From an uncultured Victivallis sp. (GTDB taxonomy: Bacteria > Verrucomicrobiota > Lentisphaeria > Victivallales > Victivallaceae), in assembly GCA_944389895.1 (NCBI GenBank), contig CALXOA010000062.1, forward strand, positions 7,073 through 71,072: a stretch of 64,000 nt of DNA. Direction: 5' to 3'. The position numbers were made by a program, and so were the translations under genes. Within the stretch, counting starts at the first letter, position 1, and each line of letters begins with the position of its first letter. Positions 27,431 through 50,669 of the stretch are shown here, in pieces. Below the pieces are notes generated by a model that had not been told where the DNA came from, did not search any database, and saw only the letters and a list, made by a program, of their open reading frames with translations.

Positions 27431-28669
27431 TCAATAGACGAGAGATCTGAAATCAGCGACCCTGTGAAGCGTAATCAGGTTGCCGTTGTGGGGAGAGGCC
27501 GCCTCGTCGTCCCCGGAACGGCTCAGAACCAGCAGGTCGTCGCCGTCGATCAACAGCGAGGCGTAATGGCGTGACGCCTTGTCGCGATGCCCGATCGCGA
27601 TCATGCCGGCAAAGCACCAGTCGAAGCCGTTTCGCGAAAAAGAGAGCTGGAGGCGGTTGCGTTCGTTGTTCGGCAGATTGAAACGCTCGTCGGACAACCG
27701 TTCCGGACGGGTGAAGGAGTCGGTTGCCTGGCTGCTGACCAGCCAGTAGAGTTTCGAGACCGGGTCGTAGTCTAGGTGAAATTTCATCTGCCCGCCGGGA
27801 AAGGGGATGTAGAAGAACCGGGCACCGCCGGGGGTGGTGATGTAATCGAGTTTCAGAGAGCCGTCTTCATTTTCAACTCCCTTGAGAACCGCGGCGAGGT
27901 TGCTCGAACCGGTGTGGGCCCGCATGAAAAGGAGGACCGTCCGGTCGGCCGGATCGTAGAACAGGTGGTCGGAGTCGTAAATTCTTACGACACTGGTCTC
28001 CAGGATGCCGGGCGCACCGCACCAGCGGGGATCGTTTCTGCGTCCCGGCACGAGGTCGGCATTGGGAAAGAAGGGAACGCCGAGATCATTCGGGAAACGG
28101 ATTTGCCGGTTGATGTCGAGAGGTTCCGAGAAGGTCCAGTTCGCCGGATCGGTCAGATCGGCGTCTTCACACGCCGCCAGCAGCACCGGTGCGACGTCCG
28201 GCCAGTTCCGGTTGCCCAGCCGCTGTTCATAGGCGACGTAGACCTTGCCGTGACGGTGGTCGATCCGGCCGGCGCTCTGGTGCCACTGGTGCTCCGATTC
28301 GAGTATGGCGGGCGAACTCCAGTGTTCCCCGTTGTCGTCACTCCGACTGATCAGGAGTCGGCCGCTGTGACCGATCACGTAGAGAGCTTTCCCGGCCCGG
28401 AAGATGGTGGCGTGAAGCATCGGCAGCACGGCGGTCCGACGCCAGCTGCGGCCGTGATCGTCGGAGAGGTGAATCTGCAACTGATTGCCGCCGGCGGCGT
28501 CGCCGGAATCGGAATGCGGTCCTTCAAGTTCGGTGATCGCCGGACCGCTGAGATCGAAACTGGCCGCGATCCGGCCGTTGAAAGCATGGCAGAGTGACGG
28601 GGTGTAGCAGTAGATCCCGGCGGGATTCGGTGAACGGAAGAGAACAGACTCCTCTGCAATCGGTTTCAT
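27431..28669 (-). CDS. BNR/Asp-box repeat sialidase-like glycosidase (no signal peptide seen)
   Basis: Asp-box motifs SDDHGRSW and SDDNGEHW and beta-propeller-like repeats. Start is ATG at 28669 (7 nt after AAGGA); ATG at 28675 and the ORF maximum at 28726 are alternatives. Confidence 0.6.
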   Translation of the reverse strand: MKPIAEESVLFRSPNPAGIYCYTPSLCHAFNGRIAASFDLSGPAITELEGPHSDSGDAAGGNQLQIHLSDDHGRSWRRTAVLPMLHATIFRAGKALYVIGHSGRLLISRSDDNGEHWSSPAILESEHQWHQSAGRIDHRHGKVYVAYEQRLGNRNWPDVAPVLLAACEDADLTDPANWTFSEPLDINRQIRFPNDLGVPFFPNADLVPGRRNDPRWCGAPGILETSVVRIYDSDHLFYDPADRTVLLFMRAHTGSSNLAAVLKGVENEDGSLKLDYITTPGGARFFYIPFPGGQMKFHLDYDPVSKLYWLVSSQATDSFTRPERLSDERFNLPNNERNRLQLSFSRNGFDWCFAGMIAIGHRDKASRHYASLLIDGDDLLVLSRSGDDEAASPHNGNLITLHRVADFRSLVY

Positions 28670-28734
28670 GATCATTTCCTTCTCTGATTCCAGACGACAG
28701 TTGAATGTCTGGGAATATAGTTCCACCGTTCCTC

Positions 28735-29586
28735 TTAATCCAGCGGCAGACCGGGAAACGCAAGGATATTTTTCAACAGACCCTGTTGCGCCATCGCATG
28801 TTTGAGCCCCCGGATCACCCCGGGGGTATCGGGGCGGGAGTCATAAAGTTTCTGAAGTTCCAGAATTTCCGCCTGAGCTCTCTTTTCCGCAGCAGCATCA
28901 TTTTTCCGCACAGCCTGGTAGAGGTCTCGGAAGAGTTCCGGGCGGAGATTTGCTCCACCGTTGACACCGCCGTCTCCACCCATCCGGATGGTCGTTGCGG
29001 TCAATGCTTCCGGCCCGGTCAGCAGACTGAAATCCTCGCGGCCGCCCAGACGCCGTATCACATCGGCAAATGCGTTGAGGTCACCGGAACTGTCTTTGTA
29101 TCCGGCAATGCCGGGAATTTTCGCGAGCCGTTCGACGAGCGCGGGGTGCAAAGTGACTTTGGTGAGAGCCGGCATGTTGTAGAGATGGAGCGGCAGCTCT
29201 GTTTCCCCGGCGAGGCGTTCGAAATAGTTGTAAAGTTCCCTGTCGTCGGCGGGCAGGTAGCAGGGGGGAGCCGCGACGACCGCGTCTGCGCCGCATCGGG
29301 CGGCGAAACGGCCGAGTTCGAGCGTTTCCGCGGCGGATGCGCTTGAAACACCGACCAGTACCGGACACCGCCCTGCGACACATTCCATGGCGATTTCCAG
29401 GAACCGGTGCTGTGTTTCGACTGTGAGGGCGGGACCTTCCCCGGTTGAACCGAGCAGAAAGATTGCATCTACACCGCCTTGTATCACGTGATTGATGGTG
29501 TTTCGTGTTCCCCGCGGATCGATGGTGTCCGGGGTCGCCAGCGGGGTGACCAATGGAACGATGATTCCCTGTAATTTCCGTGTCAT
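28735..29586 (-). CDS. DapA-family aldolase (dihydrodipicolinate synthase / N-acetylneuraminate lyase family)
   Basis: GIIVPLVTP.., GVDAIFLLGSTGEG, the YN.P motif (LYNMPALT) and the Schiff-base region ..IAGYKDSSGD. Being next to a sialidase-like gene favours a sugar-acid lyase role. ATG at 29586. Confidence 0.75.
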   Translation of the reverse strand: MTRKLQGIIVPLVTPLATPDTIDPRGTRNTINHVIQGGVDAIFLLGSTGEGPALTVETQHRFLEIAMECVAGRCPVLVGVSSASAAETLELGRFAARCGADAVVAAPPCYLPADDRELYNYFERLAGETELPLHLYNMPALTKVTLHPALVERLAKIPGIAGYKDSSGDLNAFADVIRRLGGREDFSLLTGPEALTATTIRMGGDGGVNGGANLRPELFRDLYQAVRKNDAAAEKRAQAEILELQKLYDSRPDTPGVIRGLKHAMAQQGLLKNILAFPGLPLD

Positions 29587-29711
29587 TTGCAGAACTCTCC
29601 GGTTTTCGGAATAGTATGGTCCCCCGGAGAGGATTTTGCAAGGATCTGAATGAAAACATGTGAAAATTATTTCTGAAACATTCTGAAATATTTCATCTTC
29701 TCGCTCCGTCA

Positions 29712-31508
29712 TCACCGGTCGACATTGAGTGCGGAACGTCCCCATAACCGCATTCTCTGGGCCGGGTTGGTGAATCTTACGGGAGTATTTCCGGCGGTTA
29801 TCACGATTCCGATTCTGTCGCCGGCGGAGAGGTAACCGGGCATGACATGAGCCGGAACGCCTCTGGAAACTTTTCCGATCGGAACGGCAAATTCGATGAC
29901 GGCGGTTGCATCGGCTGTCCCGGCTTGACTGATGGAAAGTCGGCCGGAGCTGAACTGGTCGGCGGTGACGATTGTCCCGCTGGGAATGCCTTCTCCGGAG
30001 AGGCGTGTTCCGGGAACGATTCCGCGGTAATAAAAATTCCCCTGTCTGTTTGCGTGGTGTTCTTCCGTCCCCGGGGCGGCTGTGATTACTTTTTCTCCTT
30101 TTCGGAGGATACAGGGGATCGAGGTGAGGCGGATGATCTCGCCGGTGGCTTCCGGAGAGTCCCAGTCCATCAGGTATTCCAGGCGGGTATCGATCAGTCC
30201 CTCCGGAGGGACTGTGATCCAGCCTTCCTTGTACAGGCCGGCGAAACGATGGTGCAGATAGTCCTGGCTGTTACCGTCGTGGGAGAACCTTACGGCCGCG
30301 CTTCCCTGAGCCGGAATAGTCTGAGGAGTATTCCCGCTCAGCAGGGCGATCGTCGCATCTTGAAAGTTGTACTTCCCGCCGATGATTCTGCTCAACAGCG
30401 ACTCTGCGCCGCCACCCATGCAGCCGAATACCGTGGTGTCGCCGACAATGATCCGAAATTCCGGAGATTCCGAAGCGTCGACGAGCAATGGACTCGGGCC
30501 GTGGTTCTTCACATCGCGTCTGTAGAAGTAGGAGCCGAGGTTGATCAGGCCGGTACAGTTTTTTCCCACCTGGAACATCGGATCCTTCACGGACGTGAAA
30601 CCGCAGAAGCCGTTGGTGTTTCCGTTGATGTGCAGCTCCCCGGCGGAGTTGTCCTCCCACTTCACGCCCCTTTTCCACTCCAGTGTGGAGGAATCGATCC
30701 GCACCGTTGTTGAATAAGCCTTTTCATCTGCGAAGATCACTGCCCAGCCGCCGGCTTCTCCGAAATCGTTCAAGCCGGTCTGCATGAAGTTGCAACCGGT
30801 GAAACGGGCGGTCCCGCAATTCATTTTGACGATGAAATTCTGGTCCATGTCGACTTTGCCGCGTTTCGGAAATGCCGTGTTGATATGGCATGCGTTGAAA
30901 ATGGCGTCGACGAAACGGCCGCCCTGATTGTCCATGATCATCTGACATTGGGCCAGCCAGCAGTTTGCGAAGAAAAATTCCGAAATCTTGGCGAACTGCG
31001 GCACATTGTCGGAGGGAATCCCGACCACCAGTGCCTTGATGTTCTGCCGGAATACGCAGTTGATGAAGAAGATCTTGTCGATGCTGCAACTACCGTTCCG
31101 GGTGTGGATCCGCACCAATGTCGAATAGGTGTCGTCAAATTCCCCCAACCCCTGAAATTCAAGGCCGCTGAAAGTGGCGTCCTGTCCGGAGATGTCTACG
31201 AGAAACTCCCTCTTCTCTCCCGGAAGTCCGACGATTTTCGCTCTGTTGCCGCGATATTGAAACATCGGATCGTTGTCGGCGTCTCCCCAGTAGAACTTCA
31301 ACTGGGTGACCCGGTAGGTCCCCGGGGGGAAATAGACGCTGCCTCCCTGATCAATCGCCGTTTGAATTGCCGTGGTGTCATCGGTCACACCGTCGCCGCG
31401 CGCTCCGAAATCCATGACGTTGACTTCCTTGTATCTGGGGGTCGCGTGGATATTGATGTTGATCAGGCTCAGAATTGCCGCCAGAAGCGATAACCGTTTT
31501 GCATTCAC
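29712..31508 (-). CDS. Secreted right-handed beta-helix protein (pectate-lyase superfamily / polysaccharide depolymerase-like)
   Basis: Signal peptide, then VMDFGARGDGVTDDTTAIQTAIDQGGSVYFPPGTYRV, the classic N-terminus of the pectate_lyase_3 / tailspike-like fold. GTG start at 31508. Confidence 0.65.
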   Translation of the reverse strand: MNAKRLSLLAAILSLININIHATPRYKEVNVMDFGARGDGVTDDTTAIQTAIDQGGSVYFPPGTYRVTQLKFYWGDADNDPMFQYRGNRAKIVGLPGEKREFLVDISGQDATFSGLEFQGLGEFDDTYSTLVRIHTRNGSCSIDKIFFINCVFRQNIKALVVGIPSDNVPQFAKISEFFFANCWLAQCQMIMDNQGGRFVDAIFNACHINTAFPKRGKVDMDQNFIVKMNCGTARFTGCNFMQTGLNDFGEAGGWAVIFADEKAYSTTVRIDSSTLEWKRGVKWEDNSAGELHINGNTNGFCGFTSVKDPMFQVGKNCTGLINLGSYFYRRDVKNHGPSPLLVDASESPEFRIIVGDTTVFGCMGGGAESLLSRIIGGKYNFQDATIALLSGNTPQTIPAQGSAAVRFSHDGNSQDYLHHRFAGLYKEGWITVPPEGLIDTRLEYLMDWDSPEATGEIIRLTSIPCILRKGEKVITAAPGTEEHHANRQGNFYYRGIVPGTRLSGEGIPSGTIVTADQFSSGRLSISQAGTADATAVIEFAVPIGKVSRGVPAHVMPGYLSAGDRIGIVITAGNTPVRFTNPAQRMRLWGRSALNVDR

Positions 31509-31592
31509 GATAAGGATCCTTTATTTTGGAATTTTACCTGTGGAAACTGATAGGAGATTGCCGGCTCCGGAGAGATTTCAACATTCCGGAAG

Positions 31593-32252
31593 CTATTCGA
31601 AAAGATCGCGGAAATAACCCGGATCAAATTCATCCCGAGGAATGAAATCCCTGGTCACGTGGCCGTCGAAGCAGAGCATGTTTGAACGGTTCCGGTGTCT
31701 TCCGATGACTCTGTCGAGGGCGTACCCCCACCAGAAAAACCATTGTCCGTAAGTACTGGGATCCCCTTCCATCAGATAATACCGAACCGATGGATTCGTG
31801 ATCCGCGACATCGGCAGCGGATTGGTGTAAATGGTTTCGACGTCGATCAGGGCAAACGTCCCCATGTAGGAGACGCGCCAGTCGGTGAGCACCCACGGGC
31901 ATTCCGCCTTGTGCCTGGGGCAAAGCAGATTTTCGTTGACTTCCGGTCCGAAGGTGTGGAGAGGGGTCCATGGGCCGAGATAGGGGATCATCAGGTCCGC
32001 CCTGGTCGTGTTGTCCTGGCTGCCGGCCGGTCGCCGGATTCCCCAGCGGGCCTGTACGATCGGAAAAAACTTCCCATCATCTCCGTAGTACATGGCTGAG
32101 CTTGTCCCAATCTGTTTCAAATGGTTCATGCAGGTCGTCGCATAAGCTGATTCGCGGGCCTGGTTCAGGGCCGGCAGCAGGATTGCCGCCAGGATGGCGA
32201 TGATCGCTACGACGATTAAAAGTTCAATCAGTGTGAAATGTTTCAAGCTCAT
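31593..32252 (-). CDS. Prepilin-type N-terminal domain protein with H-X9-DG motif (DUF1559-like), copy P1
   Basis: [34 protein letters not shown]...C.NHLKQ at the N-terminus and [13 protein letters not shown] (H-X9-DG) near the C-terminus. Confidence 0.85.
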
Positions 32253-32658
32253 TGTTGTACCCCTTCTGCAAAGAGATTTGGAATTGATGACACCCTGATG
32301 GTGATTGCCGGGCCGACGGTGTTGTTTTCATCCTCCTTCATTTCTTCCATGGTTTTGGTTTCACGACGGAATCTTCGGCAATTGGCCGTCTGCCGGATCC
32401 GGCGTCCTCCCGTGCAATACCGGAGAGGGGTTGCTGTCTGGAAAGATCTCATCGCTTCAACCTTGGTTTGCCCCCGGGAAGAACGCGGACGGCATTCTTC
32501 ATGAAGCGTATTCCAAGCCGTCCCGGGAGGCCGTCCGCCGTCCGTCGCAGGGCGGCAGCCGCCGGAATGAAAGTTCTTTCGTCATCCCGCTGCGCCGGGC
32601 ACTGTATTTCTCCTTCCGGTGGATTTCCGGAGCCTCTTTCTCCGGATAACTCCGTATT

Positions 32659-33759
32659 TCAGATTTCGGCGGAGGCCGCGCTCTCCCGACTGCGGGAGCT
32701 CAAATCCAGAACGGAATTTCTCTCGATGATCGTCGGCCGGTGATAGTAGTTCTTCTGAGCCATCTTTTCCGGATCGCTGACCATGTCCAGAGCCACCTTG
32801 ATCTGATCCACACAGTCGAGACTCTCTGCGGTGATCGGCGGGAAGTAGGTTTCAGTGATTTTTTCTCCCCCGATGGACAGGATCCCGAGATCTTCCGGAA
32901 TGCGCACTCCATGCCGGTGACAGGCGTTGATTGCTCCCTGCAGCGAACCGCCGCAGACTCCGATCAAGGCGCTGATCTTCAACCCGTTTTTTATGACCTC
33001 GTCGAATTTATGGCACGCTTTGAGAGCGCCTTCCTCACCGCGTTTGACATCGCAGTCGATGATCTGAAGTTCGAGTCCGTGCAGGTCACAGTAGTCCCGG
33101 ACGCCTTTCACTCGTTCCATGATGATGCAGTCGTGCGGTTCCGAGACAAGCACGCCGATTCTGTGATGTCCGCGTCGGAAGAGATAGTTTGCCGCCATGT
33201 GGCCGGCGAAAAGATCATCGGTCCCGACGGACGGCATATCGAACATGTCCAGATGCCATCCCCAGACGATCAGCGGAATCTCGTACTCCAGCAACGTTTT
33301 GACCTCGTTCAAACTGAAGTTTCCAGAACTCGGCAGAACGATCAATCCCACGACATTTTCTTCGGTGATCGGGAGCTCCCGGGGCACGATCAGCGACGGG
33401 TCGTATTCCTGCAGCAGCAGACGGTGCGCCGGGTATCGGTGCCGCAGGTCGTCCATTGCCTGTGCCAGCTCCACGATATCCGAAGAAACACAATGCGGAA
33501 CCGCGATCATCAGGGTCGGCTCATGGGTGATGTTCAGTTTTGCAACCCTGTCGGTGACGAAGACGCCTTTCCCCGGAATCTGCTGCAGATATCCCTCTTC
33601 ACGAAGCTGGCTGCAGGCCATGTATACCGTCATCTGTCCCACACTGTAGCGCTTCATCAATTCCCGCACCGAAGGGAATTTCTGACCCGCGGGAATGGAA
33701 GAGAGTTCCTCCAGCAAACAGTGATACAATTCTTCATATTTCAGTTTTGCGGCGGTCAT
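32659..33759 (-). CDS. GntR-family regulator of the AraR type (GntR wHTH plus LacI/PBP1-like sugar-binding domain)
   Basis: N-terminus ..KFPSVRELMKRYSVGQMTVYMACSQLREEGYLQQIPGKGVFV (GntR HTH), then a roughly 270-aa periplasmic-binding-protein type I fold. Confidence 0.75.
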   Translation of the reverse strand: MTAAKLKYEELYHCLLEELSSIPAGQKFPSVRELMKRYSVGQMTVYMACSQLREEGYLQQIPGKGVFVTDRVAKLNITHEPTLMIAVPHCVSSDIVELAQAMDDLRHRYPAHRLLLQEYDPSLIVPRELPITEENVVGLIVLPSSGNFSLNEVKTLLEYEIPLIVWGWHLDMFDMPSVGTDDLFAGHMAANYLFRRGHHRIGVLVSEPHDCIIMERVKGVRDYCDLHGLELQIIDCDVKRGEEGALKACHKFDEVIKNGLKISALIGVCGGSLQGAINACHRHGVRIPEDLGILSIGGEKITETYFPPITAESLDCVDQIKVALDMVSDPEKMAQKNYYHRPTIIERNSVLDLSSRSRESAASAEI

Positions 33760-33794
33760 GGGCTTCCTCTGTCGTTTTTAGTGTATCTAGCTAT

Positions 33795-33823
33795 ATTATA
33801 CTGTAAAATACATAAAATGTCAA
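33795..33823 (-). promoter_or_regulatory. Consensus sigma70 promoter for the AraR-type regulator gene
   Basis: On the minus strand: TTGACA (33823-33818), 17-nt spacer, TATAAT (33800-33795). It lies 36 nt upstream of the ATG at 33759. Confidence 0.6.
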
Positions 33824-33984
33824 TACCTTTTTCCTTTTTTTTTAATACATGATGCCGGATCCGGGCATGGGGCCCCGGAAATCCGGGGTATTCCCTCCGC
33901 GTCGGGATGGCGGGGGATCCGAGCGATACGGGGATCAGCAGGGTGTTTTTTCGATAAACATTCCGGTAAAGTATCGGATCTGGC

Positions 33985-34013
33985 TTGTTTTCAAGTCGAA
34001 AGAGTGCTATAAT
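33985..34013 (+). promoter_or_regulatory. Sigma70-type promoter for the 1394-aa GH2 gene
   Basis: TTGTTT (33985-33990), 17-nt spacer, TATAAT (34008-34013), 57 nt upstream of the ATG at 34070. Confidence 0.55.
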
Positions 34014-34069
34014 TAGCTTGATATAAGATTCACATATGTTTGGCAGATCAATCAGGAGTGAAGTTGCAG

Positions 34070-37000
34070 ATGAGCGGAATCTGGTCGAGAGTGCGCATGG
34101 GGGCGTGCCTGGGAGTGCTCACTATGGCGCCGATGGTCGCCGTGACGGCGGCAGAGAAGGGAAAAACGGTTGAAGAGAGTCAGCAGGAGATTGCACCATG
34201 GTATCCGGCTCCGGAGCCGCTGCGGCCGATGAATACCGCAATTCCCGCCGCTGAAGTCAGGGCGGTTCTTGCCGACGGGATCACGGTGGAGCCGGGAAAA
34301 TTCAATTCGACGCGATTGTTGAACGGTACCTGGCGTTGTTCCGGTCTGGTCCGGTCGGCGGATCCCTTCGACAACGGAATCGATCTTGACAAGGGGTATT
34401 CTGCCGCGGATTTCGACGATGGCGCCTGGGATCAGATCGAGGTGCCGCGCAACTGGTACCTGAAGTATCCCTATCGGACGATTCACAATCCGCGTGAACC
34501 CTTCGTCAAAGGATGGTATCGCCGGACGTTTGACCTGACTGCCGATGAGCTTCGCGACCGGGCGGTCATATTACATTTCAACGCCCTCGGTTACGAAGGC
34601 AGGCTCTGGATCAACGGAGAGGAGGCGGGAAGCCATCACGGGGATTTCGTCCCGTGGACGGTTGACATCACCAGATTCGTGAAGCCGGGGCGGAATACCA
34701 TCGCACTGCGGGTGTTTTCGGATTTCGGCGTCTCACAGACCCGGGGCGGCCTGAAGGCGGTGCGTTCCTACGGGGCGCAGTGGAGCGTCGAAAGCATCAA
34801 GGGCGGTTTATGGCAGGACGTCGAACTGCGTTTTGAACCGCTGATCCGGTTCAGCCGGATTCTGGTGAATCCCGAGCTCGCCTCGGGCGGAATCTCGGTC
34901 GACTATACGGTGGAAAACAGTACCGGGCGGAAGGTTGAGGCTGAACTGGGCGGTGTGGTCACGACTGCGCTCAGGGAGGGGGCAAATCAATTCAATGCCG
35001 CGGCGACCGTGTCGCGTGAACTGCCCCCCGGAACAACTTCCGGAACACTTGAAATCAAACTCGACCGGCCGGTACTGTGGTCTCCGGAACAGCCCTATCT
35101 TTACTTCCTTTCAATGTTCGTCCGTGACGGTGACAAGATTCTCTCCGCAAAGGCGGAGCGTTTCGGCTATCGTGAGTTCAAAGTCCGGGACGGCCATTTT
35201 CAACTCAACGGGAAACGGATTTTTCTGTTCGGCGAGAATATTCCCGCGAATGGTTACGGCGGCGGGGACAGCGACGAAAAATACCGGCCGATCCTCCACG
35301 CCTGGCTCGCCAACGCGCGGGCTCGCGGAATCAATATCGTCCGGAACGCCCATATGCCGATTCTGCGCCAGGCGCTCGAAGTCGCCGATGAGATCGGTTT
35401 GATGTTCTACGACGAGTGGAGCTGGAGCTTCACCAACGCGATTGAGGAAAAAGAGTTCGAAAAGCGCAATCTCGCGGAGTTCTCCCGCTGGATCGAGCGT
35501 GATTACAACCATCCGTCTGTGGTGATGTGGTCGTGCGGCAATGAGGTGATCTATCGCGACAAGCCGGAGGTGCAGCGCCAGCTTGACAAGCAGGTGGAAC
35601 TGGCGCGGCGACTTGACCGGTCCGGCCGTCCCGCCGGCTCGTTTTCCGGCTGTGCGATGTGGGACATGTATGGTACCGGAAAGCTGGTTACCGATTTCAT
35701 AGACCTCCACTTCTATCTTGGTAACGGTGTCGCGCCGTGGACACACTGGAACCGGCGGTTCGATGAATATTATGCCGGTTCGCTTCAACATTACCAGGCA
35801 ACCGGTGCGAGACTGCCTTTCCCGTACATCATCTGGGAGTGCATCGGGTTCTCGTGGGGAGGCAAGACCGATCCCACCTTCCGAGCCAACGATCCGCGCG
35901 CCTACGCCAACTATGCGCGCAGCAAGACCGACTGGGCGCAGCCGAATGGAATCGGTTATTCCGGCACCATCGGACTTGCCCGGGCTCTTTCCCCGGATGG
36001 ATTGACTTACGCCAAGAATCATTATGGCCACCGATTGCTTGAACTGATGCGTCAGGATGTCCGGATCGATGGTTTCGCCCCGTGGTTCCATGGCGCGAAG
36101 CTGGCGGGAGCCGCGCTCTGGAATCAGCCGGTTCTGCCGGGGTTGCGCGGCGCGGCCGGTTTCCCCCCGTCGAATCTTTTCTCGAAGCGGCCGGTGAAGC
36201 TGGAACTCTTCGTCGTCAATTCAACTGATCGGGCGCTTGTTGACGCAACCGCCGAGGTGACTGTGATGACCGGGCCATGGACGGAGCGCCGGATCGGGCG
36301 TTATCCGCTGGGGGGGATCGGATCATGGGAGCGACCTGTCAGGGAAATTGAATTTGAGCTGCCTTCTTCGATCCGCGGTGTTGCCCAGTTCCGGATTACG
36401 CTGTCGGCAGAGGGAAAGACCGTCGGGCGTAATTTCTATGACATTTTTGTACAGGATCCGGCTGTTTTGAATACTCCCCTTGCCGGAGCATCCCCGGTGG
36501 CGCTGCTCGACGGGGGCGACGAAACCGACATCGAGACGACCGCGGCGATCCTGAAGGCGCTGGCGATTCCGTATGAAAAAGTCGGGGACGCCGAGGCGCT
36601 GGCGAAGTTCAGAAATGCGGTGGTCCCGGCCTCGCTGCACAATACCGGAGCATTGGAGTTCGATCGCGATGCGTTGTATGGCTGGGTACAGGCGGGGGGA
36701 AATCTGCTGATCCTCGAACAGACGCCCGGCAGCGGTTCAATCCTTCCCGATCTGAGCGTGACTGCCGATCCGAACACCTTTGTCGATCTGGTGATGCCGG
36801 CGCATCCGGTCTTTTCCGGCCTGACGCAGCGGAATTTCGATACCTGGGAAAACCCGGATCTGGGCAATGTGATCACCAATGTGATTTCTCCGTTCTCCGT
36901 CAATTCGCTTGCCGCGAAGGGGCCGGTGCTTGGCGGTCGCAAGGTTTCGACGGCGATTCTGGAGGCTGCAGTCGGGCAGGGGTATGTGTTCTGGAATCAG

Positions 37001-38251
37001 CTCGATGCAGTAAAACTCTGGGGGCGCGACAGCGCTGCGTCCACCTACCTTGGAAATCTGTTCCGGTATCTTTTCTGCGGAGGTGGGCGTCATGCCGGAG
37101 TTCTGCCGCTTGAGGCGAGCATGGCTGCCGGATTCCAGGTGGATCCGGAGCGGTTGTCGCCGATCGATCTGACCGCCCATGTCAACCGCAGTTTCACCGA
37201 TGAGACCGACGGCGACGGCAAGGGAGGGTGGACGGACCAGGGGATCAACGATTTCCGCAATATGCCGCTCGGCAGACAGCGTGCGGCGGGGGTGATGTTC
37301 GAAATCATCGATCCGGCGAAGAATAACGACAAGAGCTGCATCGTTCTGCGTGGATCGAACCGGACTTATTTTCCGGAGGCTGTCCGGGGAATCCGGGTCG
37401 GCGAGAAGTTGAGCCGGATCTTCTTTCTGCATACCTGCGCCTGGGTCGGCGGAGAAGCCGGCTGTTACCGGATGAATTATGCCGACGGTACCTTCTGCGA
37501 TCTTGTGCTGGTTGACGGCAAAAACATCGGTGACTGGTGGATGGTCACGTTTCTCTCCGATGCGCTGCCGGGAATCATGCGGCCGAATGCAACCCGTGAG
37601 GAGGTGGGCACCTATGTGACCTGCTGGGAGAATCCGCGGCCCGATCAGGAGATCGTTTCGATCGATTTTCTCGGTGCCGGAGTGGCCCGCAGGGGAGAGA
37701 TCGCCTATGTCGCCGCAGCCGCTCCGGTTCCGGTCCTGGTTGCCGCGACCGGTGAGCGTTACAATCCCGCTGCGATTGAGATCAGGCCGCCGTTCCGGGG
37801 AGAGTGTTCCGACGGGGAACAGCCGCCGAAGATCGAACTGGAAAAAACGACATTGCCCGACGGTTCCGGGGGCGAGGCGATCCGGGTGGAATTTCCCGCG
37901 GTCTCCGGGAAAGGTATGAGCTGGTTTTCCGCTTCATTCGATCCGTCGAAATACAGCAAGGAGGGATTTCGCTATCTGACGTTCTGGATCAAACCGGCCG
38001 GCCTCGGGGCGCTCGACATCTCCCTTCCGGGACGGGACCGTCAGGGGGCCATGAGCCGGAGCATTGAAATCGGTACGAAGGATCGTGACTGGACCAGGAT
38101 CCGGCTCAATCTCGGCTCGGATCTGAAGTGGAGCGGGAAGGCCGCCGATGCGCTTGCCGGAGAACTTCTCATCTGCAACGGGCAGGACAAGAAGGTGTTT
38201 TTCCCGCGGCCGGCCGTGAGTTTTCTGATCAGCGGCATTGTGCTGGAGTAG
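34070..38251 (+). CDS. Large secreted glycoside hydrolase family 2 protein with an extended C-terminal region
   Basis: Signal peptide, GH2 sugar-binding domain (W..I.VP.NW.., RAVILHFNALGYEGRLWINGEE), TIM-barrel motifs (NIVRNAHMP.., WSCGNEV) and about 800 extra C-terminal residues. ATG at 34070 follows AGGAG; the ORF-track start at 34040 is a TTG. Confidence 0.8.
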   Translation: MSGIWSRVRMGACLGVLTMAPMVAVTAAEKGKTVEESQQEIAPWYPAPEPLRPMNTAIPAAEVRAVLADGITVEPGKFNSTRLLNGTWRCSGLVRSADPFDNGIDLDKGYSAADFDDGAWDQIEVPRNWYLKYPYRTIHNPREPFVKGWYRRTFDLTADELRDRAVILHFNALGYEGRLWINGEEAGSHHGDFVPWTVDITRFVKPGRNTIALRVFSDFGVSQTRGGLKAVRSYGAQWSVESIKGGLWQDVELRFEPLIRFSRILVNPELASGGISVDYTVENSTGRKVEAELGGVVTTALREGANQFNAAATVSRELPPGTTSGTLEIKLDRPVLWSPEQPYLYFLSMFVRDGDKILSAKAERFGYREFKVRDGHFQLNGKRIFLFGENIPANGYGGGDSDEKYRPILHAWLANARARGINIVRNAHMPILRQALEVADEIGLMFYDEWSWSFTNAIEEKEFEKRNLAEFSRWIERDYNHPSVVMWSCGNEVIYRDKPEVQRQLDKQVELARRLDRSGRPAGSFSGCAMWDMYGTGKLVTDFIDLHFYLGNGVAPWTHWNRRFDEYYAGSLQHYQATGARLPFPYIIWECIGFSWGGKTDPTFRANDPRAYANYARSKTDWAQPNGIGYSGTIGLARALSPDGLTYAKNHYGHRLLELMRQDVRIDGFAPWFHGAKLAGAALWNQPVLPGLRGAAGFPPSNLFSKRPVKLELFVVNSTDRALVDATAEVTVMTGPWTERRIGRYPLGGIGSWERPVREIEFELPSSIRGVAQFRITLSAEGKTVGRNFYDIFVQDPAVLNTPLAGASPVALLDGGDETDIETTAAILKALAIPYEKVGDAEALAKFRNAVVPASLHNTGALEFDRDALYGWVQAGGNLLILEQTPGSGSILPDLSVTADPNTFVDLVMPAHPVFSGLTQRNFDTWENPDLGNVITNVISPFSVNSLAAKGPVLGGRKVSTAILEAAVGQGYVFWNQLDAVKLWGRDSAASTYLGNLFRYLFCGGGRHAGVLPLEASMAAGFQVDPERLSPIDLTAHVNRSFTDETDGDGKGGWTDQGINDFRNMPLGRQRAAGVMFEIIDPAKNNDKSCIVLRGSNRTYFPEAVRGIRVGEKLSRIFFLHTCAWVGGEAGCYRMNYADGTFCDLVLVDGKNIGDWWMVTFLSDALPGIMRPNATREEVGTYVTCWENPRPDQEIVSIDFLGAGVARRGEIAYVAAAAPVPVLVAATGERYNPAAIEIRPPFRGECSDGEQPPKIELEKTTLPDGSGGEAIRVEFPAVSGKGMSWFSASFDPSKYSKEGFRYLTFWIKPAGLGALDISLPGRDRQGAMSRSIEIGTKDRDWTRIRLNLGSDLKWSGKAADALAGELLICNGQDKKVFFPRPAVSFLISGIVLE

Positions 38252-40683: not shown

Positions 40684-40846
40684 CGGGGGTATCCGGGGTG
40701 GGGGAATGATCATCGGAAGTCCGGGAAGGTTCCCACGCGGAAAGGCGTGACGGAGAATGCGGAAGGCGGAAATTCACCCTGTCGCACGGGGCGGAACTTT
40801 CTGCGGAAAGTTTCACGAGATTTGAATAAAATGTTATCTGGATGAC

Positions 40847-40875
40847 TTGCAAAAACTGTTTTTCCCCGGTATACT
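40847..40875 (+). promoter_or_regulatory. Sigma70-type promoter for the 1590-aa GH2-like gene
   Basis: TTGCAA (40847-40852), 17-nt spacer, TATACT (40870-40875). This places the ORF-track start at 40842 upstream of the transcript and supports the ATG at 40914. Confidence 0.5.
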
Positions 40876-40913
40876 ATTGTCCGACTACCCGGGCGAACAA
40901 CTTAAAATCGAGG

Positions 40914-43900
40914 ATGACGACTATGAAAATTGCCGTATTTCTTCTGTCCTTCACTTTATTGACGATGGTGTTTCCCGGAGTTGCCGCCTCGGAAAATCTG
41001 CTCCGAAACAGTGACTTTCAATTGTCGGATTCAAAGGGGGCGGGAGAGGTCCCCGATTGGCATCGTTCCGGCGGTGTTTCCATTCGGCAGCACGGCGGAA
41101 AACTGGAATTGACCACATCGGCACAGGCGCCTGACATGCGGGTCGAGCAGTTCCTTCCCGTCGCCGACAACTGGGGAACGCTCCGGTTCAGCGGAACAAT
41201 TGAAATCGACCGGATCACACCGATCGGACGTGTCGATTTCAGCGTTTATCCGACGGTGATGTTCTTCAGTGCCGACAAAAAGATTCTCGGTACGCTCCAA
41301 CTGGATGCCTCTCCAGGCAAAAGTGCCGGGATCCACGAGTTTTCGCGGGTGTTCGGGTTGCCCGCCGGCACCGTGCAGATCGCAGTCCAGTTCCGGGTCC
41401 GCTCTGCAGAAGCGGTTGCGAAAGTCGTTGCGCCGGTTCTCGAGGTGCTCGGCGCCCCCGGGGAAGCGGTTGACGCTCCGCCGCCTGCCGGACGCACGGT
41501 GGACTGGGGGCGTGAGCCGGTGATTGTACGCGGTAGTGACAGGGGCGAGATCGTGCTCAACGGGCTTTGGCGGTTTCAGATTCTCGATCCGGCGATCAAC
41601 CGCGACAAACCCGTTTCGAAGGGGTGGGGGCTGATCAACGTTCCCGGTACCTGGAATGCCCGGTCTCAGGTGCCGAACCTTGCCGCGCACGGCGGTGGGC
41701 CTCTTTGGCAGGGGAGGAACATCGACAATGCTTCCGCCGCCTGGTTCAGTCGGCCGTTGGAGATTCCCGCAGATTGGAAAGGGCGGAAAATCGAACTGGA
41801 GCTGGAACGGGTCGGTACCGTTGCCGAGGTGTGGGTTGACGGAGTCAACTGTGGGGAAGTCCGGCATCCCGGTGGTGTGGTGGATCTCACGCGGGCTGCC
41901 CGTCCCGGAGAGAAATCCGAATTGACCATCAAGGTGCTCGCCGTTTCAGACGTCAAGGAGATTCTTGAGATTGAGGGCGCCAATGCGGATCAGTTCTACA
42001 AGAAGAAGGTTACGCTGGAAGGGAAGGGGCTGACCGGCGATGTGGTGCTCCACAGCCGTCCCGCCGGCGGCGGTTATGCAGGTGTGTTCATTCAGCCGTC
42101 GGTTCGCCGCAGGATGCTGAAGCTGGTGGTCGAGTTTGCCGGACTCGACAAGCCGGGCGAATGGAAGATTGCCGCCCGGGCGCTCAAAAGTTCGGGGAAT
42201 CGGAGTTTTCCCGAGCATACCGTGCAGCTCTCCCCGGATGCAGCGGGGGAGGCGGTCGTCACTCTCGAATATCCGTGGCCCGATCCGGAACTCTGGGACA
42301 TCGACCAGCCCAACCTCTACGATCTTGAACTGACGGTGAGCGGCAACGGGCGGACCGAGACGATTCTGGAGCGTTTCGGATTTCGAGAGTTTCACATTGC
42401 GGGGCGCGATTTCTTTTTGAATGACCGCAAGTTCAATCTCCGCCCGATGGTGCTCTCCGGCTGGTCCAGCCCGACCTTCACGATCGAGGGAATGCAGGGG
42501 GCGATTGCGGGGTGGAAAAAGGCCGGCTTCAACCTCCACGAGGTCTGGCCGCAGGAGGATTTCCCCGGTAAGGTCGTCTATCCGGAACGTGCGGCGCTCG
42601 ATTACGCAGCTGAAATCGGCTGGCCGGTGATCGCCGATCTGCCGTCGATGCGTGATCTGCGGCTGAGTTTCCTCTCCGACAAGCAGGCTGCTGCCGCATG
42701 GAAAAAACGGGTCGAGGCTAAATTGCGCAGGTATCGCAACAATCCGGCGATTCTGATGTGGGTCCACTCCGCGAACTCCTTCAACGGCGTCAGCGACCAG
42801 GATCCGCGTTACATCGGTCAGCCGGAAAAGTTTTTTGCCGAGGGGAACGGCGTCACCAACGCGCTTCCCGCCGGACTTGCGGTGTCGGAGATCCTCCGGG
42901 AACTCGATCCTACCCGGCCGAATTTCTCTCACGCCGGGCAGGTCGGTGACGTCTACACCGCGAACAATTATCTGAGTATGATTCCTCTCCAGGAGCAGGA
43001 GGAGTGGCTCTCAGACTATGTCCGGTTCGGTACACACCCCTATCTTGCAGTGGAATTTGGTTTCATCGCCGGTTTCGATTTCCGGCGCGGCCGCTCCGCC
43101 TACCAGTACACCAACAGTACCGAGAAGCAGATGACGGAACACCTCGCCGCCTTCTATGGTCGTGAGGCCTATGAAAAGGAGTCCTTCGCTGCTGCGGCCG
43201 ACAACCGCAACACCCTGATCCGGGATCAGCTCTATCGCAGCACCGATGCGTTTGTTCCCGATGAACTGGCGCTTGATCTCTTCGCCAGGATGAACCGCCA
43301 GGTGTTCCGCAGCTGGCGTACTGCCGGCTGTTCCGGTGGAATGATCCCGTGGATGATCAAGGATGGTTACGATCTCGGGCGTCTCGATCAATCACTGAAG
43401 CTGAAAACCATGGCGACCGTCAAGAGTCCGCCTTTCCAGCCCGGTCGTCGCGGATTCTACAACCCCTATCTGTCGCTTGAGGCGCGCTATTGCATCGGTC
43501 TCGAGGCGGCGACGCCCAATGTCGCCGGCAAGGCGCTCTCCGAGGTCAACTCGGCGACTCTCGCCTGGCTCGGAGGCGCGGAGATCCCGGGCGATGTGGT
43601 TGATTTCACCGAGAAGAGCCACAGCTTCTACGGTGGAGAGAACGTCCGGAAACAGGTGGTGATCCACAACGACCTGCGCCGGAGCGCCCCCTACCGGTAT
43701 GAGCTTGAGCTGCTTCTCGGGGGCAAAGTTCTGGACTCCCGTAAAGGCTCCGGAACAATTGACGCGGCGGGGAAACTGCTGATTCCGGTGGAGTTCAAAC
43801 TGCCCGAAGTCACGGAGAAAACCGATGCCGAACTCCGGCTTGTCGCGGAGGTCGGCGGCAATTCCCACGGCGATCGGTTCCGTCTGCGCGTTTTCCCGGC

Positions 43901-45683
43901 GAGGCCGCAGCCGTCGGCGGGAGAAATTGCACTCTGGGATCCGAAGGGCGATACTGCGAAATTCCTGAAATCCGCCGGATACCGGGTGAAGATGGTGGAG
44001 TCTCCCGCCGCGGATACGAAGTTTCTGGTGGTCGGGCGCGACAATCTGATCCGGGGAGGAAAGCGCCCCTTCGATCTCGAAAAATATGTTTCCGGCGGCG
44101 GCACTCTGCTGGTGATGGCGCACAAGAGCTATGGGGACGGCTTCCGTTACGGCAACTTTGTGCAACGCCAGGTGTTCCCGGTGGACGACGCGTCGCCGGT
44201 TACCGCAGGGCTGGATCGCGAGGATCTGCGTGACTGGCGGGGATCCGGTACACTGCTGGAACCCTACCCGAAGGTGCCCGCCGGCAAAACCGGCTGGGGA
44301 TGGCACTGGGGGAACCGCGGTTCCGTGGTCAGCCGCAACATCGAAAAGCCGCACCATGGCGGCTGGACTCCATTGCTGGAAAGTGACTTTGATCTTCAAT
44401 ACACCCCGCTGATGGAACTTGCCCGCGGTCGGGGCGGAGTGATCGTCTGCCAGCTGGATTTCGAGGACAATCTTGCCGATCCCGCGGCAATGCGGCTTTT
44501 CGACAATCTCATCGTCTATGCGGAAGCGAAACGGTTTTCTCCGCGCAGCCGCAGTACCGTCTATCTCGGTGACGATTCCGGCCGGGAGCTGCTGACCTCC
44601 TTCGGTCTGCGATTTGAAAGTTCCGACGCGATTCCCGCCACGGCCGATCTGGTGCTGGTCGGTCCCGGTGCGAAAGCGACCCGGGCTGAACTGGAGGCCG
44701 CGGTCGGACGCGGTGCGAAGGTCGCGGTGCTCGGTGCAGAGCCTGCCCGGCGGATTCTCGGTCTGGAGCTGGAGAAAAGAAAGGATTACCGTGGTTCGTT
44801 GAGGCCCCCGGCGTGGCCGGTGGCGGCCGGGCTTTCTGCGAGCGATCTGCGTTGGCGTTCTCCGCTGGATGCCGAACTTCTGCAATCAGCATCCGGTCTG
44901 GAGGCGGGAGCCGACGGGCAGCTCGGTCGTCTGGCTGTGCCGGGAGGAGAGATCATCGTCTCGCTGCTCGATCCGAACCGGTTCGACACGGTCAAATTTC
45001 CGTACTGGCGTTTCACCCGCTGGCGGCAGACCCGGGCGTTGAATCAGCTGCTGGCAAACCTGGGTGCGGAGTTTTCCGTCGATGGAGAGTTTTTCGCCAA
45101 TACTCCCGGTGCGACGGGGTGGCTTGATTTTGCCGAAAACTGGCGCGGCAGATTTCTCGTGAAAATGGGAAAGGCTTCGGCTCCGCTGAAGGATCCGGGG
45201 ATTTCCGCTGAGGCACGAAAGGCGGTCCAGCCTGATTTCGACGATTCGAAGTGGCAGCTGATCGACATGCCCTTCTGCTGGCATCGGGAGGCGTTGAACG
45301 ATCCGGAGTGGGGAGAGCAGAACGGCGAAGCGGTTTTCCGCCGTGAAATCACAATTCCCGCGGAACTTGCCGGAAAGAGTCTGAAGCTCGATCTCGGTCT
45401 GATCGATGATACGGACAAGACCTATTTCAACGGCGAATTGATCGGGGGCGCCGACAACTACCAGGTGTTCCGCAGTTATACGATTCCGGGACGACTGGTG
45501 AAGGCCGGCCGCAACGTGATTGCGATCAGGCTATTTGACAACTTTGGAGAAGGTGGCTTCTTCAGCAATGCGAAGGTCTTCCGGATGCCGCTCAAGGAAC
45601 AGGTCATCGGCCTTTACCATTCCGATTATCTCGATGCCGATTTCAGGAGTGCCGATCATCCGCATCGTTACCATCGCTGGTGA
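40914..45683 (+). CDS. Very large secreted multidomain glycoside hydrolase family 2-like protein
   Basis: Signal peptide (MKIAVFLLSFTLLTMVFPGVAAS), N-terminal CBM-like jelly roll, GH2 sugar-binding domain (..AAWFSRPLEIPADWKGRKIELELERVGTVAEVWVDGVNCG), TIM-barrel-like region and a C-terminal galactose-binding-like domain (DDSKWQLIDMPFCW...KTYFNGELIG). Confidence 0.7.
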   Translation: MTTMKIAVFLLSFTLLTMVFPGVAASENLLRNSDFQLSDSKGAGEVPDWHRSGGVSIRQHGGKLELTTSAQAPDMRVEQFLPVADNWGTLRFSGTIEIDRITPIGRVDFSVYPTVMFFSADKKILGTLQLDASPGKSAGIHEFSRVFGLPAGTVQIAVQFRVRSAEAVAKVVAPVLEVLGAPGEAVDAPPPAGRTVDWGREPVIVRGSDRGEIVLNGLWRFQILDPAINRDKPVSKGWGLINVPGTWNARSQVPNLAAHGGGPLWQGRNIDNASAAWFSRPLEIPADWKGRKIELELERVGTVAEVWVDGVNCGEVRHPGGVVDLTRAARPGEKSELTIKVLAVSDVKEILEIEGANADQFYKKKVTLEGKGLTGDVVLHSRPAGGGYAGVFIQPSVRRRMLKLVVEFAGLDKPGEWKIAARALKSSGNRSFPEHTVQLSPDAAGEAVVTLEYPWPDPELWDIDQPNLYDLELTVSGNGRTETILERFGFREFHIAGRDFFLNDRKFNLRPMVLSGWSSPTFTIEGMQGAIAGWKKAGFNLHEVWPQEDFPGKVVYPERAALDYAAEIGWPVIADLPSMRDLRLSFLSDKQAAAAWKKRVEAKLRRYRNNPAILMWVHSANSFNGVSDQDPRYIGQPEKFFAEGNGVTNALPAGLAVSEILRELDPTRPNFSHAGQVGDVYTANNYLSMIPLQEQEEWLSDYVRFGTHPYLAVEFGFIAGFDFRRGRSAYQYTNSTEKQMTEHLAAFYGREAYEKESFAAAADNRNTLIRDQLYRSTDAFVPDELALDLFARMNRQVFRSWRTAGCSGGMIPWMIKDGYDLGRLDQSLKLKTMATVKSPPFQPGRRGFYNPYLSLEARYCIGLEAATPNVAGKALSEVNSATLAWLGGAEIPGDVVDFTEKSHSFYGGENVRKQVVIHNDLRRSAPYRYELELLLGGKVLDSRKGSGTIDAAGKLLIPVEFKLPEVTEKTDAELRLVAEVGGNSHGDRFRLRVFPARPQPSAGEIALWDPKGDTAKFLKSAGYRVKMVESPAADTKFLVVGRDNLIRGGKRPFDLEKYVSGGGTLLVMAHKSYGDGFRYGNFVQRQVFPVDDASPVTAGLDREDLRDWRGSGTLLEPYPKVPAGKTGWGWHWGNRGSVVSRNIEKPHHGGWTPLLESDFDLQYTPLMELARGRGGVIVCQLDFEDNLADPAAMRLFDNLIVYAEAKRFSPRSRSTVYLGDDSGRELLTSFGLRFESSDAIPATADLVLVGPGAKATRAELEAAVGRGAKVAVLGAEPARRILGLELEKRKDYRGSLRPPAWPVAAGLSASDLRWRSPLDAELLQSASGLEAGADGQLGRLAVPGGEIIVSLLDPNRFDTVKFPYWRFTRWRQTRALNQLLANLGAEFSVDGEFFANTPGATGWLDFAENWRGRFLVKMGKASAPLKDPGISAEARKAVQPDFDDSKWQLIDMPFCWHREALNDPEWGEQNGEAVFRREITIPAELAGKSLKLDLGLIDDTDKTYFNGELIGGADNYQVFRSYTIPGRLVKAGRNVIAIRLFDNFGEGGFFSNAKVFRMPLKEQVIGLYHSDYLDADFRSADHPHRYHRW

Positions 45684-47684: not shown

Positions 47685-48111
47685 TGGTCAGATTCAGTGC
47701 TTTGTGGAAGGCCGCCGCATAGAAGTCCAGAGCTTCGACAAATTCCGGTGAAAATCTGGCAACGGTTTCACGCATGGCTTTTTCTTCCGCCGCATGAATC
47801 TCCGCCAGAATCAGTTCTGCGAACTCCCGGCCCTTCCGGGTGAAGCGCAGGTAGCATTCGCGCCGTCTGCCGGGGATGGGTTCCAGGGTGATGTACCCGG
47901 CATTCCGGCATTCGGTGACGATCGTGTTGATGGTCGACAGCGGCAGCAGCCAGTTGTTGTGCAATTTACTCTGGGAAAGGTTCTCATCGTCGGCCAGCGC
48001 ATACAGGAGAACCACGATATTGGGTTTGACCGCGATGGAACGCCCCTTGACCAGGTAGGCGTGATCGATCACGTTGGTTGCATTGACCAGTTTCCGGATT
48101 TCGCCGCGCAT
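47668..48111 (-). CDS. MarR family transcriptional regulator
   Basis: 147 aa with a winged-helix core (..LSQSKLHNNWLLPLSTINTIVTECRNAGYITLEPIPGRRRECYLRFTRKG..). First gene of the MarR-MATE-GNAT operon. Confidence 0.75.
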   Translation of the reverse strand: MRGEIRKLVNATNVIDHAYLVKGRSIAVKPNIVVLLYALADDENLSQSKLHNNWLLPLSTINTIVTECRNAGYITLEPIPGRRRECYLRFTRKGREFAELILAEIHAAEEKAMRETVARFSPEFVEALDFYAAAFHKALNLTNENTQ

Positions 48112-48130
48112 GGAAAATCTCCTTATATTA

Positions 48131-48176
48131 CGGATTCGTATTTTTCAAATCCATAATATAATCCGGATTCGTATTT
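48131..48176 (-). promoter_or_regulatory. Pair of identical 13-bp direct repeats at the MarR promoter (candidate operator sites)
   Basis: CGGATTCGTATTT at 48131-48143 and again at 48164-48176, centre-to-centre 33 bp. On the minus strand one copy sits in the spacer of a TTGCAG-16-TATATT promoter and the other just downstream of the predicted start site. Confidence 0.5.
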
Positions 48177-48330
48177 CTGCAAGGCTGTTGTGCAAAAAAT
48201 TGAAATCAGGACAACGGAGCCCCGGGGCGATGAAGTGGAAAGCAGATACCGAAGGCCTTCCGGAGAGTACCCGGAGATTGGCCACGAGGTGTACGGCACA
48301 GAATTGATCGGAAAAGGAATGTAAAAAAGC

Positions 48331-49287: not shown

Positions 49288-49310
49288 CGGTGATTCCTCT
49301 TTCAGGTTAT

Positions 49311-49348: not shown

Positions 49349-49392
49349 GATATCTCCGCTCAGTTTTGTTCCATTATGTTTCATGGAAACGG

Positions 49393-50618: not shown

Positions 50619-50669
50619 CCATTGCAATGGTCCCGATCATTGACATTCATGGCGTGGGAGTTCTGGAAT

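Follow-up and report, generated by a model that had tools for sequence, protein, structure and literature searches.

In a 64,000-nt stretch of a contig from Victivallis sp., a gut member of the Lentisphaerota, referred to here as the window, we analysed a gene for a 219-aa H-X9-DG/DUF1559 type IV pilin-like protein (P1; 31593-32252, minus strand), which lies between the gene of an AraR-type regulator and that of an exported enzyme. This set of genes, copy 1 (27431-38251), is one case of a recurrent, lineage-wide operon design in Lentisphaerota made of a regulator, a pilin-like protein and an exported enzyme. The protein family itself is known and uncharacterised; what is new here is the Lentisphaerota-specific operon design together with the loss of the canonical residue at position -1 of the prepilin cleavage site. 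The initial annotation of this DNA had seen the pilin-like genes as parts of sugar-regulated operons for exported enzymes and not of a pilus operon, and the regulators and downstream genes for carbohydrate-active enzymes (CAZymes) described below bear this out.

Gene order was compared in a one-genome-per-species scan of 80 loci chosen by their similarity to P1, in which gene calling relied on a codon-model caller that had been validated on the window, and H-X9-DG genes were found by hidden Markov model (HMM). The scan gave 97 units, 41 from Lentisphaerota, 28 from Verrucomicrobiota, 22 from Planctomycetota and 6 from other lineages. According to per-gene local HMMs, a sugar-type regulator (periplasmic-binding-protein type, AraC or ROK) occupied the position immediately upstream of the pilin-like gene in 24 of the 41 Lentisphaerota units, compared with 19 of 312 other genes (odds ratio 21.8, Fisher p = 4e-15), and a chance origin of the gene order was rejected at that same p value. 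Nineteen of the 24 upstream regulators were co-oriented with the pilin-like gene and five were divergent, and full triads were present in 21 of the 36 Lentisphaerota units having both neighbours. By Pfam, the upstream neighbours (n = 41) carried Peripla_BP_3 in 16 cases, GntR in 12, AraC in 5, LacI in 4 and ROK in 1, while 110 control genes at least three positions away contained at most one Peripla_BP_3 and five AraC matches. The downstream neighbours (n = 36) comprised beta-helix/PF12708 proteins (4), CBM9 (4), Laminin_G_3 (3), GH5 (2) and DUF4838 (2), with single cases of GH78, GH99, GH123 and heparinase, and a regulator was found downstream in only 1 of 36. Among the 31 co-oriented downstream proteins of at least 80 aa, 27 were at least 200 aa long and had a hydrophobic, signal-peptide-like N-terminus. 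The median gap between pilin-like gene and enzyme gene was 24 nt, and the commonest closed operon consisted of the pilin-like gene and one enzyme.

The enrichment of neighbours that was to be looked for according to the initial annotation thus stands for Lentisphaerota, with regulators about 22-fold enriched upstream and carbohydrate-active domains prevailing downstream, and fails elsewhere: in the fetched loci an upstream regulator was found in 1 of 27 Verrucomicrobiota units and in none of 19 from Planctomycetota. Because the regulator, pilin-like gene and enzyme arrangement is absent from these loci, it is specific to the lineage and not a property of the whole family. Outside Lentisphaerota the gene following the H-X9-DG gene was small (median 193 aa in Planctomycetota and 277 aa in Verrucomicrobiota), and in 2 of 48 Verrucomicrobiota and Planctomycetota cases a secretin followed, which suggests that the partners there are different and nearer to the machinery. 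The fetched Lentisphaerota loci contained no gene for secretion or pilus machinery.

P1 orthologues of 66-67% identity were present on two independent contigs (L001 and L002) in the same order, that is, a GntR-PBP3 regulator, the pilin-like gene and a 598-aa PF12708 enzyme, with 27 nt between the last two. These contigs carried further triads (GntR, pilin-like gene, GH5+CBM9; ROK, pilin-like gene, GH99) as well as an arrangement in which AraC and pilin-like genes diverge and the gene of a GH42-like enzyme follows the latter. A paralogue 45% identical to P1 was located between a LacI gene and the gene of a GH39-like enzyme. Third-party gene calls with precomputed Pfam matches agreed on the order in three further loci: GntR-PBP3, pilin-like gene, a 1305-aa CBM9 protein and later a sulfatase (L086); GntR, pilin-like gene and esterase (L087); LacI, GH123, GHL6, GH32, pilin-like gene and GH42 (L088).

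A motif scan of the 64 kb identified exactly three prepilin/H-X9-DG proteins, P1, P2 and P3. All three passed the prepilin N-terminus model TIGR02532 (21.6-21.9 bits, P1 21.6, against a cut-off of 16.3) and remained slightly below the 21.2-bit cut-off of Pfam N_methyl (PF07963; 19.5-21.0 bits). The N-terminus of P1 consists of the leader MSLKH, the cleavage site and a hydrophobic helix, and the H-X9-DG motif near the C-terminus is exact in P1 and present in P2 and P3. The GspG, ComGC, PilA and GspH models matched the P1 N-terminus only (about residues 4-62) and far below their cut-offs; the GspG model TIGR01710 gave 30.4 bits over residues 5-62 only, well short of its equivalog cut-off of 88.85. 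PF07596 matched P3 with 29.3 bits (cut-off 23.3) over profile positions 2-32 only; P1 and P2 had no match to it at E <= 0.01, and precomputed PF07596 matches exist for the orthologues P0002 and P0003. Since no H-X9-DG model came up in the NCBIfam scans, even at E <= 10, P1 is assigned to the family by its motif, by the alignment and by the source names of its homologues, namely 'DUF1559 domain-containing', 'type II secretion system protein' and 'prepilin-type processing-associated H-X9-DG protein'. The named homologues come mostly from Victivallaceae and Lentisphaeria.

In an AlphaFold2 (AF2) model built with 75 homologues (pLDDT 79, pTM 0.80), P1 models as a type IV pilin-like protein, with a 53-residue N-terminal helix (residues 7-59) and a small alpha/beta head with strands at 128-130, 157-162, 189-193 and 198-201. 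The DG of the motif makes the turn of the last beta-hairpin of the model (189-193/198-201), and for this reason the motif looks structural rather than catalytic. A Foldseek comparison of the P1 model with the PDB and a profile search among PDB sequences both matched pilins, and the latter also GspG, through the helix only. The head is covered by no solved structure, and no recognisable lectin or carbohydrate-binding module (CBM) domain was found in it. Phe+1 and Glu+5 are invariant in 75 aligned family members and in the three window copies; the hydrophobic helix, Cys40, Tyr54 and Cys110 are likewise invariant in the 75 members, and H185, N190, D195, G196 and H197 are conserved in at least 90% of them. 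The conserved Cys40/Cys110 pair fits a predicted extracytoplasmic location. Synonymous sites across the conserved helix differ among P1, P2 and P3, which argues that the helix is kept by selection on the protein and not by gene conversion, as would be expected if all paralogues served one machine. The heads are hyperdivergent, most pairs having no detectable similarity, and orthologous heads are 62-69% conserved alongside partner enzymes that are 68-78% conserved.

The family is very large: 7,957 of 8,000 scored candidates were matches, and out of 1.84 billion representatives at least 65,428, counted as clusters at 50% identity, matched at E <= 1e-30 and 251,173 at E <= 1e-10. Planctomycetes have been reported to hold 68-74 H-X9-DG/DUF1559 copies (PMC10632474, PMC2754498). 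In agreement with the initial annotation, which knew of no assigned function for such proteins in glycan-utilisation loci, the full-text literature on DUF1559 and H-X9-DG offered passing mentions and no assigned function, and the papers on Kiritimatiellales and Kiritimatiella contained nothing on pilins.

Glycine at -1, or rarely alanine, is a key determinant for prepilin peptidases. The corresponding residue is His in P1 (32238-32240), His in P2 (49893-49895) and Arg in P3 (56212-56214). Gly or Ala was found at -1 in 23 of 23 Planctomycetota and 29 of 29 Verrucomicrobiota copies but in 3 of 46 from Lentisphaerota; the other 43 have Arg, Lys, Ser, Leu, His, Pro or similar residues, and leaders may be as short as three to five residues. 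Among the top family representatives, 42 of 137 have Gly or Ala at this position. Either a peptidase of relaxed specificity would process the Lentisphaerota H-X9-DG proteins, or they would not be cleaved; that Phe+1 and Glu+5 are so strictly kept speaks for the relaxed peptidase without proving it.

Based on these data, we tentatively favour a model in which an operon-specific pilin-like subunit links the enzyme made with it, or the glycan of that enzyme, to a type II secretion system (T2SS) or type IV filament machine encoded elsewhere in the genome. The two roles suggested in the initial annotation, a cargo-specific pseudopilin or a SusD-like binder, stay at the level of proposals. Copy 1 is read as a sugar-controlled operon composed of an AraR-type repressor gene, a pilin-like gene, the gene of a Sec-exported beta-helix depolymerase and genes for cytoplasmic follow-up enzymes. 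Derepression would yield the pilin-like subunit and the enzyme from one transcript, and the nearly invariant N-terminal helix would carry the subunit into the inner membrane, where the cell's type II secretion or type IV filament machine would engage it. The hypervariable head would then couple the co-expressed enzyme to the machine, for outer-membrane crossing or for retention at the cell surface, so that each operon would supply one adaptor subunit to one shared machine.

Several observations weigh against this model. An interaction of the pilin-like protein with an enzyme or with a secretion machine is proposed from gene order and sequence, and no machinery gene lies nearby. The closest paralogue of P1 shares about 37% identity with it in the head, and its partner enzyme is unrelated and its regulator of another type, which disfavours strict recognition of one enzyme fold. 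The window also encodes exported proteins of glycoside hydrolase (GH) family 2 that have no pilin-like gene of their own, and hence a partner in cis is not needed by every exported enzyme. Canonical cleavage by a prepilin peptidase, and with it filament assembly, is uncertain because the -1 residue is not Gly or Ala in Lentisphaerota. The neighbour sample is biased, being drawn from P1-similar loci and from our own gene calls, with three low-GC loci essentially devoid of calls; one of these three, from the marine Lentisphaeria WC36 (L049), is not a triad, and its pilin-like protein shows an H-X9-DM variant of the motif and carries Lys at -1.

What was found on the operons and on the pilin character of P1 would also suit a pilin whose variable head binds the poly- or oligosaccharide degraded by its operon and which, displayed on a type IV-like fibre, holds or reels in the substrate. 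Such a pilin would resemble SusD or glycan-binding pilins in function, and it might provide the route over the outer membrane that is missing in a lineage without TonB-dependent uptake genes, according to the cited isolate study. We regard this as possible but rather unlikely. The xylan-induced PilA of Caldicellulosiruptor bescii binds xylan and cellulose (10.1101/614800), and glycan-binding minor pilins are described for S. sanguinis (PMC9934059). The presence of the closest paralogue beside a different enzyme fold is easier to accommodate with glycan than with enzyme specificity, and TonB-dependent receptors or SusD were not found in the window scans and have not been reported in Kiritimatiella (PMC5148204). 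Head binding is proposed by analogy, however, for a head devoid of a recognisable lectin or CBM domain and of a structural match, and one binder for each enzyme gene looks excessive where pilin and enzyme genes alternate in pairs (L043, L056). A broader form of the filament idea, which we consider unlikely and put forward as a speculation, is a modular filament-based use of glycans: each sugar-controlled operon would add its own subunit to a shared machine, the make-up of the fibre would follow the glycans sensed, the variable head would dock the cognate enzyme or glycan, and loss of Gly(-1) would mark a co-evolved new rule of prepilin processing.

It is improbable, in our judgement, that no filament is involved and that P1 stays in the inner membrane as an uncleaved bitopic protein, its periplasmic head serving the enzyme as an escort or holdase, or else functioning in solute binding or in sensing. 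The absence of Gly or Ala at -1 in 43 of 46 Lentisphaerota copies, the very short leaders and the 42 of 137 proportion among top family members would fit such a protein, as would the Pfam family name SBP_bac_10 and the label 'solute binding protein' repeated for PF07596 in PMC2754498. On the other hand, Phe+1 and Glu+5, which processing and filament assembly require, are strictly maintained by purifying selection, the head in the AF2 model is too small for a periplasmic-binding-protein fold and differs from it in topology, and no transporter consistently adjoins these genes. Least credible to us, and very unlikely, is a generic supply of pseudopilin, in which every induced operon would simply raise the capacity for secretion, irrespective of cargo or glycan, the diversity of the heads reflecting relaxed constraint or phage or grazer pressure on an exposed surface. 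The interchangeable N-terminal helices, the induction of T2SS genes by polysaccharide in WC36 and the unrelated similarities of heads and partner enzymes outside orthologues (n = 4 pairs only, p = 0.37) agree with it, but conservation of orthologous heads close to that of their enzymes indicates that heads do not evolve freely, and the strict position of the gene after the regulator and directly before the exported enzyme exceeds what co-regulation needs.

Within copy 1, the open reading frame (ORF) map and the Pfam and NCBIfam matches agreed with the initial annotation on the genes and their positions, the minus-strand order being AraR-type regulator, P1, beta-helix enzyme, DHDPS-family aldolase and a weak BNR-like ORF, with an exported GH2 read divergently. 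The AraR-type assignment of the regulator (32659-33759, minus strand) was also upheld: it matches GntR at residues 8-68 (44.7 bits) and Peripla_BP_3 at residues 191-350 (65.2 bits), which corresponds to the AraR architecture of a GntR winged helix and a LacI-like periplasmic-binding-protein fold, predicted to be sugar-responsive. The exported right-handed beta-helix enzyme (29712-31508, minus strand; 598 aa) has a Sec-type signal peptide and PF12708 at its N-terminus. Among 5.8 billion proteins it had four full-length homologue clusters (64-99% identity), all other matches covering the N-terminal 40-60 residues only. Its AF2 model (pLDDT 65) matched phage tailspike and capsule depolymerases, WceF and RbmB with probability 1.0 and low TM-scores, so that there is a fair case, at the level of fold class, for a depolymerase-like product.

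The cytoplasmic enzyme encoded next (28735-29745, minus strand) belongs to the DHDPS/KDG-aldolase family (DHDPS family 194 bits); its best match was 4xky, a DHDPS (214 bits), followed by the KDGal aldolase YagE (138 bits) and N-acetylneuraminate lyases (about 110 bits), and nanA models gave 108-112 bits against cut-offs of 281-382. The last ORF (27431-28726, minus strand; 431 aa) shows a weak BNR/beta-propeller signal, BNR_2 reaching 22.4 bits against a cut-off of 31.4; it has no signal peptide, and its best PDB sialidase match (E = 4e-4) had no aligned stretch. The sialidase-like enzyme and the sialic-acid-like branch of the initial annotation are thereby not upheld, and a sialic-acid catabolic cluster is unsupported, with BNR_2 below threshold and the aldolase nearer to DHDPS and YagE than to N-acetylneuraminate lyase.

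On the plus strand, the GH2 gene (34040-38251; Pfam) has its likely start at ATG 34070 and encodes a signal peptide. Large exported GH2-type proteins are encoded at 34070-38251 (about 1394 aa) and at 40842-45683 (about 1613 aa), both with signal peptides and neither with a pilin-like gene of its own; upstream of the latter lie fpg, one ORF without family assignment and lexA. As the initial annotation had noted for the vicinity of copy 1, no GspD/E/F, PilB/C/D or secretin was detected when the gene calls examined in the 64-kb window were scanned with Pfam. Among the window ORFs scanned there was also no Pfam match to TonB_dep_Rec or SusD-like families, and an Rfam scan of the window gave no match.

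The regulator gene of copy 1 is preceded by a promoter that matches the consensus in 12 of 12 positions in the promoter scan (TTGACA-17-TATAAT; 33795-33823, minus strand), and the divergent GH2 gene by an extended -10 element, TGcTATAAT (34005-34013), with a -35 matching in 3 of 6 positions. The back-to-back consensus promoters of the initial annotation therefore hold on the regulator side and not on the GH2 side. The spacer of the regulator promoter contains TGTA-N3-TACA, and ATACA lies downstream of it. GT..AC half-sites are the usual pattern of GntR-family operators, and these elements are candidate GntR-type operator half-sites. The promoter core TTGACAT..TGTATTTTNCAGTATAATATA..AGATACA is kept in L001 and L002 despite diverged flanks (33757-33880 compared with 8780-8904 in L001/L002) and although the proteins of the loci sharing it are only about 67-78% identical; the block looks like a promoter/operator footprint.

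Regulator and pilin-like genes are separated by a non-coding spacer of 406 nt in the window (32253-32658) and by 28 nt in the orthologous loci, where this short gap with an AAGGAGG ribosome-binding site indicates that regulator, pilin-like gene and enzyme share one transcript. The 406-nt spacer had no protein or DNA similarity to any fetched sequence, and the scan found no minus-strand terminator-like site in it. It contains a perfect 12-bp palindrome, GCCGGATCCGGC (32392-32403), which we considered as a candidate operator and do not rely on, given its absence from the orthologous loci. Only two copies of the 12-mer TGCCGGATCCGG exist in the 64 kb, one in this spacer and one between the divergent promoters (33853-33864).

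The claim of the initial annotation that the regulator, H-X9-DG protein and exported-enzyme set recurs twice more in the window proved correct, with the qualification that the copy 2 glycanase is a GH-A gene split by a frameshift. The two sets are located at 48.3-53.7 kb and 53.9-57.3 kb. In copy 2, a LacI-family regulator gene (48331-49287, minus strand; Pfam) is divergent from that of P2 (49875-50618, plus strand), an H-X9-DG pilin-like protein that starts MNNRGKH/FTLIELL, the slash marking the cleavage site, and the exported clan GH-A glycosidase gene (50622-53652, plus strand) follows as two ORFs of 416 and 541 aa with no Pfam matches. The frameshift lies near a CTCTCTCT run (CT repeat) at about 51830-51840; WEFWNEE is found in the frame of ORF2 upstream of its ATG, LWITENG inside ORF2, and a homologue (L039) aligns over both frames. 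The N-terminal domain of the protein recurs at its C-terminus with about 30% identity. A homologue search with ORF 50703-51872, the front half of the frameshifted gene, gave no match when used alone. The frameshift could be a pseudogene mutation, an assembly error or slippage. The GC content over 48000-54000 is 0.50-0.53, compared with 0.58-0.61 in most of the window, and this region may be a more recent acquisition.

Copy 3 lies on the minus strand and comprises a winged-helix (GntR-like) regulator gene (56246-57268; Pfam), that of P3 (55519-56226), an H-X9-DG pilin-like protein with the start MNTDR/FTLIELL, again with the cleavage site at the slash, and an exported GH5 gene (53879-55432; Pfam) encoding 517 aa from the start on record. 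The pairing of pilin-like gene and GH5 recurs on other contigs. Apart from the pilin-like operons and unrelated to them, the window carries at 15498-19255 the gene of an SbcC-like AAA/SMC ATPase (843 aa) adjoining that of a calcineurin-like phosphoesterase, which resembles an SbcCD-type nuclease pair.

These results concern a very large family without assigned function, of which single genomes carry dozens of members, and they bear on how polysaccharide degraders of the Planctomycetota-Verrucomicrobiota-Chlamydiota (PVC) group that have no Bacteroidota-style SusC/D secrete or retain their enzymes and take up the products. One pilin-like subunit, one exported enzyme and one sugar regulator provide a concrete, testable handle on both questions. 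A close relative, Victivallis vadensis, exists as a named isolate; the citrate synthase encoded in the window shares a cluster at >=90% identity with that of V. vadensis, in keeping with the origin of the window from Victivallis. If the pilin-like proteins were cargo- or glycan-specific adaptors of a T2SS or type IV filament machine, this would be a new principle for that superfamily of machines. A modular filament system, if true, would mean adaptor-based export, display or capture in outer-membrane-bearing bacteria lacking SusC/D, and through it one of the largest bacterial protein families still uncharacterised would gain its first assigned role. The operon design could also mark secreted glycan-active enzymes of unknown family, such as the 598-aa beta-helix protein.

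Compared with known systems, P1 shares with other H-X9-DG/DUF1559 proteins the prepilin-type N-terminus, the C-terminal motif and a massive expansion of paralogues in PVC bacteria. In the fetched loci, however, the Planctomycetota and Verrucomicrobiota genes code for Gly or Ala at -1 and do not lie beside sugar regulators or exported CAZymes, whereas the Lentisphaerota copies lack Gly or Ala and lie within regulator/enzyme operons. With the T2SS pseudopilins (GspG/PulG, GspH-K) P1 has in common the N-terminal 55-60 residues, the long helix with a small head and, plausibly, a link to exported hydrolases; it differs from them in its location outside a gsp operon, its unmatched head, its many operon-tied paralogues and a -1 residue that is not Gly. 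Bacteroidota SusC/SusD loci resemble copy 1 in having a non-catalytic accessory protein for each glycan-specific regulated locus beside exported glycanases, but in copy 1 this accessory is pilin-like and the window Pfam scans detected neither a SusC/TonB receptor nor SusD, so that the likeness is one of logic only. In type VI secretion systems (T6SS), cargo-specific adaptors are encoded beside their effectors, as in adaptor/VgrG-effector pairs. P1 would be comparable, purely by analogy, as the product of a small gene directly upstream of that of a secreted protein with the shared machine encoded elsewhere; we know of no cargo-specific adaptor of this type for the T2SS or for type IV filaments.

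Closer to the proposed capture of glycans, C. bescii PilA is induced by polysaccharide, linked to plant-biomass degradation and binds glycan directly (10.1101/614800), but unlike P1 it is a single major pilin, not one of a set with a member for each enzyme operon, comes from a complete type IV pilus locus of a Gram-positive host and has no H-X9-DG motif. In the Lentisphaerae strain WC36, laminarin raises expression of the T2SS secretin, E and F genes and of a very highly expressed 'GspH family' protein (value about 15,000; PMC11361711, supplementary file 1), and it induces abundant filamentous particles, read by the authors as phages (PMC11361711). In Verruconatronum alginivorum, an alginate-induced lyase cluster includes the gene of a pulG-like pseudopilin, of which the genome holds 67 homologous copies; another pseudopilin outside the two induced clusters is over-expressed on alginate, and export of the lyases by the T2SS is suggested by the authors (PMC13274419, 2026). 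The pulG-like pseudopilin comes from a different phylum (Opitutales) and is mentioned only in passing, and the paper describes no regulator/pilin/enzyme order, enrichment test or -1 anomaly. Likened by its published description, it is the nearest precedent for an operon-embedded protein such as P1.

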